Shown here: positions 17,192 to 45,313 of the stretch, piece by piece
Layout: every line of letters begins with the position of its first letter
Position numbering within the stretch: the first letter of the stretch is position 1
From: Candidatus Atabeyarchaeum deiterrae
GTDB lineage: Archaea; Asgardarchaeota; Atabeyarchaeia; Atabeyarchaeales; Atabeyarchaeaceae
Direction: 5' to 3'
DNA length: 64,000 bases
NCBI GenBank assembly: GCA_037310415.1
Contig: CP147780.1
Coordinates: 352,001 to 416,000 of the forward strand
Notes under the pieces: model-generated
The model's input: only the letters and a program-made list of their open reading frames with translations
Database searches by the model: none
Told to the model about the DNA's origin: nothing
Program-made: the position numbers and the translations under genes

Positions 17192-17330
17192 TGCGGCGCT
17201 CGGGATTTTCACCCTATAAGACCAGTGCTCAGCACAGGGATTTGAACCCGAGTTTCCGCCTTGGGCTGTTGTTAACCCAAGTTAGAGGCTTGGAAGGCCT
17301 CAGTCCTAGACCAGTCTAGACCAGCGCCGC
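17192..17330 (-). tRNA. tRNA-Gly(TCC) with two introns (variable region ~17254-17282; T-loop 59/60, 17206-17240)
   Basis: Acceptor GCGGCGC/GCGCCGC, anticodon arm GAGGC-CTTCCAA-GCCTC; T-loop intron has a perfect BHB (TTCA/TGAA helix). Confidence 0.92.
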
Positions 17331-17464
17331 ACAGCTGTATCACTTATTGAGTTCTCCACTTATTTTTACTTAAGTCTTTCTGCATGAGCATGCTGATTCA
17401 CGGTTCATCCCGACAAGCGCAATAGAACAGTCGTTCAAGTCGACTCAAAACAGAAGTCAAATGA

Positions 17465-17636
17465 TGGTGCGCCGACCGGGATTTTCATCCAGTGAGAGTG
17501 AACTCTCTGCCTGACTTTGAACCCGGGTTTTGCCGATGACCCCACCATTAAGCGGGGTAACAACATTATCGGCGTGGCAGGCCAATGTCTTAGACCATTC
17601 CAGGCTCCAATATTTGGCAGACTGGACCATCGGCGC
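17465..17636 (-). tRNA. tRNA-Gly(GCC) with three introns (D-loop 17598-17619; 44/45, 17530-17567; 59/60, 17482-17515), CCA encoded
   Basis: Acceptor GCGCCGA/TCGGCGC+ACCA; arm TTGGC-CTGCCAC-GCCGA; BHB central helices CCAG/CTGG, GCCG/CGGC, TTCA/TGAA; spliced length 78 nt. Confidence 0.92.
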
Positions 17637-17743
17637 ACCTTTCTTCCTGCGATCAGAATTTTAATTAAGGATTACTTAAATGCTTTGTGTCTGGGGATGA
17701 ATTTCCGCCACTAACTTGATTTCACAAGAGTTAGAAGCTTATC

Positions 17744-18697
17744 ATGAGCGAAATAGTTGCCAGAAGGCTTGCCGAAAAGTTTGGCTATTCACGTTATCTT
17801 GTCGACAGGTACGTGGAACTTTTCGGAATTGACGGCACCACCAAGCTTCTGGAAGCAAACGAGAAGGGCCTGAAAAGGTGCATTAGATGCAATACGATTC
17901 GTGTTTCACCAGAGTACTTAGGTGACAGACTACAGAGGAAAGGATTCAAACTAGAGAGAATAAGCTGGATCCCCTACGGGTTTAGAGTATTAGAAGAACG
18001 ATTCCGCCTTGGGTCGACAACCGAGTTCCTTCTTGGGTACTATTATGTTCAAGAAGCAGCTGCCATGCTCTCGGCCCATGTTTTGGCTCCTCGCCTTGAT
18101 GATCTCGTTGTCGATCTAGGAGCCGCGCCAGGCGGGAAGACCACACAGCTAGCTCAGATAATGGAAAACAAGGGCGCTATTATCGCGATCGATCTGAATC
18201 GAAGCAGAATGAAGTCTTTGAGATCCAACCTGGCAAGGTGCGGTGTCTCGAACGTGATTGCCTACAGAATGGACGGCAAGGACTTATCTAGCCTAGATGT
18301 GGTTCCTGACAAGATCCTTCTCGATGCTCCATGCTCTTGTGATGGTGTGATTCCATTTGATCCATCCAGAAAGAAGAGTAGAGGATTGGAGGACATAATG
18401 TTCTGCTCCTCAATTCAGAAGAGGCTAATCATGGCTGCGGTCGAATGTTTAGCTCCAGGCGGAGAGATTGTCTATTCGACTTGCAGCACAGCTCCCGAGG
18501 AGAATGAACACATCATAGCCGAGGCTATTGAGAGGTTCGAGGTTGAAGTTCTGGATTTGGACTTGGGTTTCGGCGATGAGGGCCTTCGAGAAGCATTTGG
18601 CATGAGGTTTCCCGACGAACTTCGCTTGGCTCGCAGATTCTACCCTCATAGACATGGCACAGAGGGTTTCTTTGTATGCAAGTTAAGGAAAAGGTGA
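17744..18697 (+). CDS. RsmB/NOP2-family RNA m5C methyltransferase
   Basis: DLGAAPGGKT, ILLDAPCS, VYSTCS..PEENE. Confidence 0.93.
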   Translation: MSEIVARRLAEKFGYSRYLVDRYVELFGIDGTTKLLEANEKGLKRCIRCNTIRVSPEYLGDRLQRKGFKLERISWIPYGFRVLEERFRLGSTTEFLLGYYYVQEAAAMLSAHVLAPRLDDLVVDLGAAPGGKTTQLAQIMENKGAIIAIDLNRSRMKSLRSNLARCGVSNVIAYRMDGKDLSSLDVVPDKILLDAPCSCDGVIPFDPSRKKSRGLEDIMFCSSIQKRLIMAAVECLAPGGEIVYSTCSTAPEENEHIIAEAIERFEVEVLDLDLGFGDEGLREAFGMRFPDELRLARRFYPHRHGTEGFFVCKLRKR

Positions 18698-18706
18698 GTC
18701 GATGAG

Positions 18707-19255
18707 ATGGCAACAATAGAGTTTCGAATAGCGACCGCCGAGGAGAAGAGAACAATTATGAAACGCATAGATGACTTGTTTGGCAAGGATGTTGCATCGA
18801 AAACGATTGGGAGTATGGAAGTCATCATGGCGAACGGGAAGCGGGTTGAACTTTTTCTGGTTCCACAGAAGGTTCTAAGTATTTTCAAAAAGACTGAAGG
18901 TAAGCATAACCCCTATTGCTTGGGAGTCTATGTTGGAGACCTCGTTAACAATGAGTTCTTACCGAGCATTGAAGGAGCCACATTGATCTCTCCTCACACG
19001 AATAGAAAAATGAGGGTCTCAATGAAAGGCGAACAGACTATTCTTTATGGCAGGGATGTCAAGCGCTCATTTGTCAAGGAAGCTCCATATGATGCACACA
19101 AGGGAGAGAGAGTTGTAATAACCAATGTCCTTGATGAAACCATAGCATTAGGAAAAATGTCAATAGATCGTAGCAAGTTCAACGGTGTTAGCAAACAGAC
19201 GCTGGTGGCAGAGAACATCATTGACAGAGGATGGTATCTCAGGGAAGGCAAGTAG
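18707..19255 (+). CDS. nip7: Nip7-like PUA-domain ribosome biogenesis protein
   Basis: GEQTILYGRDV, D.GWYLR C-terminus; follows the NOP2-family gene. Confidence 0.78.
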   Translation: MATIEFRIATAEEKRTIMKRIDDLFGKDVASKTIGSMEVIMANGKRVELFLVPQKVLSIFKKTEGKHNPYCLGVYVGDLVNNEFLPSIEGATLISPHTNRKMRVSMKGEQTILYGRDVKRSFVKEAPYDAHKGERVVITNVLDETIALGKMSIDRSKFNGVSKQTLVAENIIDRGWYLREGK

Positions 19256-43317: not shown

Positions 43318-43447
43318 GCTTCAAACAGGTTTGCATATACTTGACTGGTTTTCTCATGAGTTCTCTTCGCAACGGATTTCACTGCCCATCACTTTATTTC
43401 AAATCCTCGATTATTGACTAGATGATTATCGGAGGGTCAATCAAGCA

Positions 43448-44490
43448 ATGAAAGAAGCTAAGCTACCATATGACATAAAGAGAAGCTTTCGAGACAAATC
43501 TCATGATGTTACAGACGACAGATTTGGCTGCAATCCATCGAAACGTCCCATAGCTGAACATATCGACAAGGGCGTAATCAACTTGGACAAGCCAGCAGGC
43601 CCGACGAGTCACGAAGTGGTCGCCTGGGTAAAGAGGATATTTGGAATCGAGAAGGCTGGTCATGGCGGGACTCTAGAACTGACCATCGTTACCTGACACA
43701 TGTATGGCGGCAGAGTAATCCCCGAGTAACTGGTCTTCTGCCTGTAATGCTGAGTAACGCAACTAAACTCGTCCAAGCAATCTTGCCCGCAGGTAAGGAA
43801 TACATATGCATTATGAGGCTGCATAGCGACGTTTCGGACCAGGAACTAAAGGAAGTCTGTGAAGAGTTTGAAGGCCCGATACACCAAAGACCGCCTTTAA
43901 GATCTTCTGTCAAGCGCATCTCTCGCATTAGAACGATTTACTATCTTCAAGTTCTCGAGAGAGACGGCAGAGACATATTAATGAGGATTGGGTGCCAAGC
44001 GGGCACATACATAAGGAAACTCTGTCACGATATCGGTGAGGCCATCGGCGGTGGTGCTCACATGAAAGAATTAAGGAGAACCAGAACGGGGTCCCTAAGA
44101 GAAGATGAGTCCATGATGATCCTCCAAGACATTGTAGATGCAGTTCACTTCTGGAAGAACGATGGAAATGAAGACCCTGTTCGGAAGGTTGTCCGGCCTA
44201 TGGAGGAGGCAATTGAACACCTCCCAAAGATCATTATTCGAGATTCGGCGGTCGACGCGATATGTCACGGAGCTCAACTTGCAGCCCCTGGCATACTCAA
44301 GACCCATACTGGCATAGCAAAGAACGCCTTAATCGGAATCTTCACATTGAAAGGAGAAATCGTTGCGTTGGGACGGGCACAGCTTGATACGGAGAACATA
44401 ATCTCAGCTGATAAGGGTATAGTCGCTGCTATCGAACGCGTGATTATGGAACCGGGGGTATACCCAAAGCACGAAAAGCAGAACAGTTAA
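43448..44490 (+). CDS. cbf5: H/ACA pseudouridine synthase Cbf5, spliced: join(43448..43676,43718..44490), 333 aa
   Basis: [11 protein letters not shown] and KAGHGGTL in exon 1; [21 protein letters not shown] and PUA domain in exon 2; intron removal restores GTLDP. Confidence 0.93.
43677..43717 (+). other. 41-nt BHB-type pre-mRNA intron in cbf5
   Basis: GGGA-CTCT-AG^A...AGAG-TA^A-TCCC: 4-bp central helix, two 3-nt bulges, outer helix GGGA/TCCC; contains an in-frame TGA and shifts frame. Confidence 0.9.
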
Positions 44491-44532
44491 CTGCAGAATC
44501 ATGGTTGCTCGGATGGTTGGGATTTAAATAAT

Positions 44533-45165
44533 ATGCCTGAACATTACTTTACCGCTGAACCAACATCTGAACTGAAGCTAAGATCGCTGACTTTTGCTGT
44601 ACTTGGAATAGAACTGCGATTTCTGACAGCTTCCGGAGTTTTTTCGCACAGAAGGGTTGACACAGGAACTAGAGTGCTTCTTAAGTCCATGAAGATACCC
44701 AACAGAGGGCAGATTCTAGACCTAGGCTGTGGATGGGGGGCCATTGGAGTATTCATAGCTATGACACATCCAGAAGCGCGTGTCGTAATGACCGACATAA
44801 ACAAGAGGGCAGTTCGACTTGCTGTAGAAAACGTTAAGCTCAACAAAACAAGTGCTGAAGTAAGATGTGGTGACCTCTATGAGCCAGTCAGCCGCATGAA
44901 GTTTGATGCCATCGTCTCTAATCCGCCCATATCTGCAGGGTTCAGCTTGATAATCAGGCTAATCAATGAAGCATATGACCATCTTAATCGGGGAGGCTCA
45001 ATTCAACTTGTTGCTCGCAAGAGAAAAGGCGGCAGGACTATATCGAAGATTCTGTCAAAAGCCTTTGGTAATGTCCAAGAGATCGAGAAGAAGAGCGGAT
45101 ACACTGTATATTTATCACGTAAAGAGAATGAAATCGGTTCTGAACAGCCAGACAAAAGGGTTTAA
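44533..45165 (+). CDS. RsmC-like class I SAM methyltransferase
   Basis: HYF, GVFS...VD.GT, LDLGCGWG, SNPP. Confidence 0.88.
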   Translation: MPEHYFTAEPTSELKLRSLTFAVLGIELRFLTASGVFSHRRVDTGTRVLLKSMKIPNRGQILDLGCGWGAIGVFIAMTHPEARVVMTDINKRAVRLAVENVKLNKTSAEVRCGDLYEPVSRMKFDAIVSNPPISAGFSLIIRLINEAYDHLNRGGSIQLVARKRKGGRTISKILSKAFGNVQEIEKKSGYTVYLSRKENEIGSEQPDKRV

Positions 45166-45195
45166 ATGGATCTGGAAACCCTAGAAAAAAGAAGA

Positions 45196-45313
45196 GCCGT
45201 GGTAGCCAAGTTCGGTTAAGGCGCGGGATTGGAGATCCCGTTCCCTTTATGGGAGCGCCGGTTCAAATCCGGCCCAATCCACTCGGACAATCTCCGCGTG
45301 GAGGCTAACGGCG
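45196..45313 (+). tRNA. tRNA-Ser(GGA) with a 32-nt intron in the acceptor stem (68/69; 45277-45308)
   Basis: GCCGTGG 5' strand; arm CGGGA-TTGGAGA-TCCCG; long variable arm; T arm GCCGG-TTCAAAT-CCGGC; 3' strand CCA^CGGC-G forms only after excision. Confidence 0.9.

Follow-up and report, generated by a model that had tools for sequence, protein, structure and literature searches.

Predicted bulge-helix-bulge introns in the tRNA genes, cbf5 and further genes of an Atabeyarchaeia (Asgard) genome

Introduction

Does the tRNA splicing machinery of an Asgard archaeon also serve messenger RNAs? The question is raised by a stretch of 64,000 nucleotides of the genome of Candidatus Atabeyarchaeum deiterrae (hereafter the window, G000:C1:352001-416000, G000 being our handle for the genome), in which six tRNA genes and the cbf5 gene are broken up by short inserts with the features of bulge-helix-bulge (BHB) introns. 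A sequence-only reading of this stretch had taken these features as the sign of an unusually broad EndA and of an active process of intron gain. Our analysis makes it highly probable that the inserts in the tRNA genes, in cbf5 and in other genes are BHB introns that would be excised by a tRNA splicing endonuclease (EndA) of the (alpha-beta)2 type, the exons then being joined by RtcB. It appears probable as well, be it with less assurance, that EndA and RtcB of the Atabeyarchaeia constitute a general splicing system for mRNAs and other RNAs, with at least nine protein genes and the signal recognition particle (SRP) RNA in need of BHB splicing.

The genome (2,756,679 bp, 46.6% G+C) belongs to the Atabeyarchaeia within the Asgard archaea and is curated, complete and contained in a single contig (PMC11291895). 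The closest Cbf5 among named records (79% identity) is that of 'Promethearchaeati archaeon LC30', which has been treated as a relative of the Atabeyarchaeia (Valentin-Alvarado et al. 2024, PMC11291895).

Six interrupted tRNA genes

On the unspliced window ARAGORN called a single tRNA, with a wrong anticodon, and Rfam gave two tRNAs at the gathering threshold and two more weakly. T-loop seeds led to six candidate tRNA genes within positions 17192-45313. For these genes all BHB candidates were listed, combinations of up to three were spliced in silico with the cut placed after the second nucleotide of each 3-nt bulge (a rule confirmed in PMC2738675), and the products were scored by ARAGORN. The best solution was one clean cloverleaf of 77-88 nt for every gene (6/6), with 12 introns over the six genes and none at position 37/38, which matched exactly the number and the positions that the sequence-only reading had listed. 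Its claim that excision yields products of normal length was likewise borne out, by the six cloverleafs and by the restored frame of cbf5.

The central helix (H) that bounds the intron had been described as a 4-bp helix throughout, and this holds for cbf5 and for 11 of the 12 tRNA introns (H 4/4), the odd one being the 45/46 intron of tRNA-Gly(UCC), where 3 of 4 pairs form. Motifs with flanking helices h and h' of at least 2 each were classed as strict (hBHBh') and the remainder as relaxed; by this measure 4 of the 12 tRNA introns are strict and the others are relaxed, HBh'-like (h 0-1 or h' 0). The BHB geometry of the window introns agrees with the earlier assignment to a type that needs an endonuclease of broad specificity. 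When the 12 tRNA introns and the cbf5 intron were taken together as a register control, H was 4/4 in 12 of 13 at the true register, and each of the 12 slid registers (3' site moved by 1-6 nt either way) left 0 or 1. The first nucleotide of the 3' bulge is A in 12 of these 13 introns.

On the minus strand, gene A (tRNA-Gly(UCC), 17192..17330) consists of three exons that give a spliced cloverleaf of 76-77 nt; its introns are located at 45/46 (17254..17282, 29 nt; H CCTC/GCGG, h 2, h' 8) and at 59/60 (17206..17240, 35 nt; strict, H 4/4, h 6, h' 7). Gene B (tRNA-Gly(GCC), 17465..17636, same strand) has four exons, separated by an intron in the D-loop at about 17/17a (17598..17619, 22 nt; H CCAG/CTGG 4/4, h 1, h' 2), a relaxed one at 44/45 (17530..17567, 38 nt; H GCCG/CGGC 4/4, h 0, h' 3) and a strict one at 59/60 (17482..17515, 34 nt; H 4/4, h 5, h' 2). 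Gene C (tRNA-Ala(GGC), 26418..26525, plus strand) is made up of two exons around a relaxed intron at 45/46 (26464..26494, 31 nt; H GTGG/CCAT 4/4, h 0, h' 5). The three exons of gene D (tRNA-Val(GAC), 26610..26774, minus strand) are separated by a 55-nt intron within the anticodon at 34/35 (26685..26739; H GCCC/GGGT 4/4, h 0, h' 6) and a 33-nt intron at 46/47 (26640..26672; H CGGT/GCCG 4/4, h 1, h' 4).

The two remaining genes are found on the plus strand. Gene E (tRNA-Phe(GAA), 27720..27888, four exons) carries introns in the D-stem at 22/23 (27743..27763, 21 nt; H CGGG/CCCG 4/4, with weak flanks, h 1 and h' 0), in the anticodon stem at 30/31 (27772..27809, 38 nt; strict, H 4/4, h 3, h' 3) and at 53/54 (27833..27865, 33 nt; H CGCA/TGCG 4/4, h 0, h' 8). 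In gene F (tRNA-Ser(GGA), 45196..45313, two exons) the long variable arm is native and free of introns, and the only intron is found in the acceptor stem at 68/69 (45277..45308, 32 nt; strict, H GGCC/GGCT 4/4, h 2, h' 5). The 3' CCA is encoded in four of the six genes (B, C, D and E); the gene for tRNA-Gly(UCC) lacks it and that for tRNA-Ser(GGA) has CC only. A T-arm-like string, GGTTCGAATCC, at window positions 59900-59960 on the minus strand was discarded as a chance match: it lies within the open reading frame (ORF) of an FMN-dependent dehydrogenase on the other strand and no tRNA could be built around it.

That none of the introns is canonical, as had been claimed, is true of the window and not of the genome. 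Among the tRNA loci outside the window that Rfam detects, which are those that were resolved, canonical 37/38 introns occur in five Arg genes and in the genes for tRNA-Thr, tRNA-Ser(UGA) and tRNA-Pro, and two genes (Ala-UGC and Gln-CUG) are free of introns. The Rfam tRNA matches fall almost all within about 35-790 kb of the 2.76-Mb chromosome, with two outside; the tRNA genes thus seem strongly clustered, and heavily interrupted ones elsewhere may escape Rfam. Intron-less copies, which had been named as a finding that would speak against splicing, were sought for the six tRNAs of the window by searching the mature sequences genome-wide. None was found, since the mature sequences match only their own loci, in separate exon pieces.

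The three introns of tRNA-Phe recur in two sister genomes, where 94% of the exon columns are invariant versus 46% of the intron columns, and one acceptor-stem pair shows a compensatory change.

The cbf5 intron

The prediction of an mRNA intron in cbf5 proved right: the gene contains a 41-nt BHB insert, and its removal restores the ORF. The only TruB_N match in the genome (window positions 43720-44013) begins at profile position 17. Upstream of it, exon 1 (43448..43676, plus strand) encodes the DKCLD domain and ends with GHGGTL plus the G of an Asp codon. The predicted intron (43677..43717, plus strand) has H CTCT/AGAG, bulges AG^A and TA^A, an outer helix GGGA/TCCC and an in-frame TGA inside. 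Exon 2 (43718..44490, plus strand) supplies the AT of the Asp codon followed by PRVTG, and encodes TruB_N, TruB_C_2 and PUA. The insert is thus located inside the codon of the catalytic Asp, and splicing restores the reading frame together with the GTLDP motif (GHGGTL-D-PRVTG, GHGGTLDPRVTG). Of about 1,600 possible in-frame fusions, none aligns better with an intron-less homologue than that at the BHB junction.

The same site (G^AY, the Asp codon) is interrupted alike in the Atabeyarchaeia (G000 and LC30), in Borrarchaeum, in twelve Bathyarchaeia loci and in one locus of the Thermoprotei (L047). The 14 loci resolved by the BHB analysis all have H 4/4, and the helix covaries between them (CTCT/AGAG, CTTT/GAAG, CCCT/GGGG and CCTT/AGGG); outside these 14, two more Bathyarchaeia loci have in-frame inserts at the site. 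Besides Borrarchaeum and Bathyarchaeia the intron was seen in four Asgard families (f1, f15, f17 and f18 in our set). It was absent from the sampled Hadarchaeota, Hermod-, Loki-type, Sif-, Heimdall- and Hodarchaeota genomes, and also from the sampled Woesearchaeota, Nitrososphaeria and methanogens. In about 10 of 42 genomes of the class of L047 (Thermoprotei) the TruB_N match is broken at profile position 16/17, which, at the level of the profile position, fits the known crenarchaeal cbf5 intron (PMC2738675). As judged from these alignments, the predicted cbf5 intron of this type extends to phyla that are new for it, Asgard and Bathyarchaeia.

Further interrupted genes in the genome

A naive genome-wide scan for BHB motifs combined with ORF fusion, with parallel pairing as the decoy, could not separate real from decoy cases at any threshold (65,824 versus 64,136 overall, and 1,079 versus 1,005 at h+h' of at least 8). 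Structure alone cannot find mRNA introns, and therefore a homology scan without any RNA motif was used: the ORFs of a complete Odin-type relative (G003, 1.418 Mb) were compared with the genome by tblastn, and those queries were retained of which the match was split into two adjacent pieces in different frames. After removal of false cases nine split genes were left, namely cbf5 and eight others with inserts of 28-53 nt. In 9/9 the junction that best restored homology coincided with a BHB cut site; H was 4/4 in seven and 3/4 in two, whereas about 2% of arbitrary junctions have H 4/4 by chance. Eight protein genes in addition to cbf5, together with the SRP RNA, bear out in silico the expectation that further spliced mRNAs and non-coding RNAs would turn up.

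In genome coordinates, the inserts on the plus strand are located in pcm (321676-321704, 29 nt; H 4/4, h' 8), cbf5 (395677-395717, 41 nt; H 4/4, h 4), valS (457151-457181, 31 nt; H 3/4, h' 4) and glyA (652709-652749, 41 nt; H 4/4). Those on the minus strand are found in an EndoQ-like gene without a Pfam family (338672-338632, 41 nt; H 4/4, h' 6), a radical-SAM gene, where removal restores C-N-L-T-C-P-W-C (919059-919007, 53 nt; H 4/4, h 4, h' 7), the MTAP gene (938197-938160, 38 nt; H 3/4, h' 6), gatE (2222266-2222226, 41 nt; H 4/4, h 4, h' 5) and a RuBisCO-like gene (2663508-2663481, 28 nt; H 4/4). The SRP RNA carries a strict BHB insert of 31 nt in helix 3 (H CTAG/CTAG, h 8, h' 4), which coincides exactly with a 32-nt insertion in the Rfam alignment.

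A second, partial reference, made up of 1.2 Mb from genome G026 and about 170 additional loci, yielded no new split gene. The number of nine is a lower bound that covers genes with a relative in the 1.4-Mb genome or in the partial second reference, and the true number of BHB-interrupted protein genes is probably of the order of ten and not hundreds.

Several candidates were rejected. Near 897.4 kb, NuoC-like and NuoD-like genes are separate in this genome and fused in the reference; near 2,261,400 the insert is in frame and about 210 nt long; the candidate near 1,783,460 is weak; and those at 463-466 kb are spurious antisense ORFs in the 23S rRNA gene. An HDAC-like gene at about 1,596,140-1,596,180 (plus strand) shows two overlapping frames and no BHB and is probably a plain frameshift; the split in this HDAC-family gene may be a plain or a programmed frameshift, or a sequence error. 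The ORFs in the 23S rRNA gene (about 463,000-465,700) align to the Odin genome in broken pieces with one gap of about 56 nt, and for that reason the 23S rRNA may carry short inserts of its own. A second SHMT-like gene (G000:C1 82723-83163) is uninterrupted and 38% identical to the Odin GlyA, so that the intron-bearing glyA may not be the sole source of the activity. Elsewhere in the window, a TnpB/Cas12f1-like gene (PF07282, 56324-57592, minus strand) is located in the only G+C-rich stretch (50% versus about 46%); it is probably part of an IS200/IS605-type element.

Conservation of the mRNA introns

Seven of the eight further protein genes were compared with sister genomes, and each of the seven introns recurs in at least one of them. 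Each of the genes glyA, valS and gatE has its break at one site common to the three Atabeyarchaeaceae genomes, with conserved BHB cores and diverged interiors, and the inner stem of the valS insert shows a compensatory change (AGTC/GACT versus AGCC/GGCT). In the other Asgard families searched the three genes are uninterrupted, with two exceptions: one family has a break elsewhere in glyA, and in two families gatE carries its intron two codons further downstream than in the Atabeyarchaeaceae (loci L240, L218 and L222 versus L242-L244). The offset gatE sites reflect either sliding of the intron or independent insertions at a hot spot. In two of those other-family genomes the gatE intron, 30 nt long and containing a stop, keeps the frame.

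The pcm intron occurs at the same site in three Asgard families, where H covaries (CACC/GGTG versus CGCC/GGCG) and the interiors are unrelated. The EndoQ-like gene and the MTAP gene are interrupted in all three members of the Atabeyarchaeaceae. The radical-SAM gene is interrupted in this genome and in one sister genome (G002) and contiguous in the positional orthologue of the other (G001:C1 958882-959439), which implies that the presence of this intron varies within the family through clean loss or gain. An uninterrupted paralogue of the radical-SAM gene, 68% identical to the Odin protein, is found at genome position 2,428,705.

The splicing enzymes

The genome contains two PF01974 genes, encoding EndA paralogues of 238 aa (alpha, at 215.5 kb of G000) and 198 aa (beta, at 625.6 kb), each composed of PF02778 and PF01974. 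The alpha subunit has its best match in the catalytic subunit of A. pernix (3p1z_B, E 2e-46) and keeps, of the catalytic Tyr/His/Lys triad, the histidine in GPGIDHAPF. Across the Crenarchaea-specific loop the alignment with A. pernix is ungapped (QPISIRKPKTFDF on QPLDVEKPRGADF), with K and K opposite K44 and R46. In beta, the putative structural subunit, a Thr replaces the histidine of the M. jannaschii enzyme. RtcB is encoded by one intact gene.

The Crenarchaea-specific loop and its lysine are known to confer broad specificity, and enzymes that bear the loop accept relaxed BHBs (PMC3241643). On its sequence, EndA of this organism is a putative (alpha-beta)2 enzyme of the ordinary crenarchaeal broad-specificity type, with nothing unusual in it. 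The proposal of an 'unusually broad' EndA is therefore not supported: the predicted subunit architecture, with specificity loop and lysine, is the normal one.

Weighing the explanations

The observations above (motif geometry, cloverleafs and frames restored by excision, the presence of both enzymes, and conservation in relatives) can be brought together in a proposed mechanism, of which we infer the cleavage and ligation steps. Each precursor would fold locally into a bulge-helix-bulge; an (alpha-beta)2 EndA, the alpha subunit of which has the crenarchaeal specificity loop, would cut every 3-nt bulge between its second and third nucleotides; and RtcB would ligate the exons. The predicted substrates are the six tRNAs of the window with their 12 introns, the cbf5 mRNA, at least eight other mRNAs and the SRP RNA.

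A number of points weigh against splicing by EndA and RtcB. The spliced RNAs are predicted from DNA. When four metatranscriptome runs were compared with window positions 26300-45400, three short contigs were obtained, none of them over a tRNA gene or cbf5, a result that has no bearing on expression. The substrate range of EndA is likewise a prediction from its sequence. Some of the motifs are relaxed: H is 3/4 in Gly-UCC 45/46, valS and MTAP, and Phe 22/23 is almost without flanking helices. By cloverleaf score alone, the boundaries of two variable-loop introns (A1 of tRNA-Gly(UCC) and C1 of tRNA-Ala(GGC)) are ambiguous by 1 nt. Finally, spliced tRNA-Phe is left with an A51.C63 mismatch in the T-stem, a mismatch that is conserved in all three Atabeyarchaeaceae genomes.

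That the spliced RNAs are predicted from DNA would also suit an explanation in which nothing is spliced and the interruptions are the product of decay or assembly artefacts (pseudogenes, mis-assemblies), in line with the failure of standard tools to recognise most of these tRNAs and with the HDAC-like split gene near 1,596,150, which resembles a plain frameshift without a BHB. However, the genome is a curated and complete single contig (PMC11291895), intact copies of the six tRNAs are absent from it and its sole ValRS-like match is the split one. Moreover, independent genomes share the positions of the inserts to the nucleotide, the exons and BHB cores being conserved, the interiors diverged and pairs changed in a compensatory way, and the BHB cut rule removes every insert exactly, restoring a conserved motif. 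On this comparative evidence pseudogenes or assembly errors would be a very unlikely explanation. We consider it just as improbable that genuine introns are removed by other machinery (self-splicing or a dedicated nuclease) instead of EndA and RtcB. Nothing specific speaks for it apart from the fact that the substrate range of EndA is predicted, whereas the introns (20-55 nt) are far below the size of group I or II ribozymes and show BHB geometry without exception, and the canonical enzymes are present and intact.

An explanation that we rate somewhat higher, and still as unlikely in view of the conservation patterns, restricts splicing to the tRNA introns and has the inserts in protein genes handled at translation, by bypassing or programmed frameshifting, or has the two halves made as separate polypeptides. 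With sequence as the material at hand a hop over a hairpin is formally possible, and exon 2 of cbf5 has an in-frame ATG shortly past the junction. Yet the mRNA inserts follow the geometry of the tRNA introns of the same genome (4-bp helix, 3-nt bulges, the same cut and, as a rule, A as the first nucleotide of the 3' bulge), and the helix pairs covary between exon and intron across lineages. The breaks fall inside catalytic motifs, for instance the Asp codon of cbf5 and the CX3CX2C motif of the radical-SAM protein, so that separate halves would lack the motif. Besides, such cbf5 introns are spliced by (alpha-beta)2 EndA in Crenarchaeota (PMC2738675, PMC10485636). Excision by EndA followed by ligation by RtcB is the explanation that we retain as highly probable.

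Implications

According to the alignments, most of the nine predicted mRNA introns are located inside conserved active-site motifs. The sharing of introns across families (pcm; the neighbouring site in gatE; cbf5 in Asgard, Bathyarchaeia and Thermoprotei) suggests either that these introns are very old or that insertion recurs at BHB-prone sites, and the distribution of the cbf5 and pcm introns allows these two alternatives, ancient origin and repeated gain, to be tested concretely. A practical consequence concerns annotation: as gene callers truncate such genes or split them, reading ValRS, SHMT, GatE, Cbf5 and others as two ORFs, Asgard annotations and metabolic reconstructions contain systematic errors.

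With two genes counted in a review (PMC10485636), nine candidates in one genome that are conserved across species would make archaeal mRNA splicing a regime open to study and no longer a curiosity. No prokaryotes are closer to the eukaryotes than the Asgard archaea, and the splicing of their mRNAs by proteins alone, at active-site codons, would bear on the way in which interruptions of genes could be tolerated before the spliceosome.

Comparison with known systems

The tRNA-intron regime itself is not new: it has been published for this lineage and probably for this very genome. In the complete genomes of wetland-soil Atabeyarchaeia and Freyarchaeia 92-95% of the tRNA genes were reported to have introns, often non-canonical and multiple, with 228 introns in total (PMC11291895). 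A preprint (Goswami et al. 2026, bioRxiv 10.64898/2026.10.13.758758), of which the abstract, introduction and results deal with tRNA genes only, presents in these parts a motif-free census in which a tRNA gene of these families has about 2.2 intervening sequences, many of them D-arm introns that tRNAscan-SE misses; it further reconstructs 129 gains and assigns an (alpha-beta)2 EndA to 44 of 60 Asgard genomes. According to the same parts, the mechanism by which the introns arrived was not found. Its Phe-GAA example, with three inserts including one of 21 nt in the D-arm, matches gene E of the window.

The sequence-only reading had looked to the Thermoproteales for a parallel. The multi-intron, non-canonical tRNA genes of that order (Sugahara 2008; Fujishima 2010; as described in papers that cite them) do resemble the present ones in having BHB introns at many positions, several per gene, which need an (alpha-beta)2 EndA with the crenarchaeal loop (PMC3241643). 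However, the host here is an Asgard archaeon, for which both the regime and the repeated gain were already on record. Not only does it belong to another phylum, but related introns across tRNA types amount to 1.5% in Asgard versus 28% in Thermoproteales in the sections of the preprint mentioned above (bioRxiv 10.64898/2026.10.13.758758), and on these figures the transposition model would not be transferable to Asgard.

For protein genes the record is much shorter. Our literature searches gave no paper on a cbf5 intron in Asgard or Bathyarchaeia or on BHB introns in other Asgard protein genes, and a term search of PMC11291895 found no mention of cbf5. A review of 2023 put the number of archaeal genes that the endonuclease splices at two (cbf5 and HVO_1309) and expected more (PMC10485636). 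The HVO_1309 mRNA of Haloferax volcanii is, like the mRNAs proposed here, an archaeal mRNA cut by the tRNA splicing endonuclease; it differs in being a single gene, in a euryarchaeon, with an enzyme of the alpha2 type (PMC10485636).

A further counterpart is the crenarchaeal cbf5 intron (Watanabe 2002; Yoshinari 2006; PMC2738675). It interrupts the same gene as the present one, and the two are alike in their short relaxed BHB, in which the cuts are placed between bulge nucleotides 2 and 3, and in having a host with EndA of the (alpha-beta)2 type. The crenarchaeal intron was reported only in Desulfurococcales and Sulfolobales and as absent in Thermoproteales, Cenarchaeum, Nitrosopumilus and Korarchaeum (Yokobori 2009, PMC2738675). 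The hosts found here, in contrast, are Asgard archaea (Atabeyarchaeia and Borrarchaeum) and Bathyarchaeia, and the presence of the cbf5 intron in several Asgard families, Borrarchaeum and Bathyarchaeia means that its published range is too narrow.

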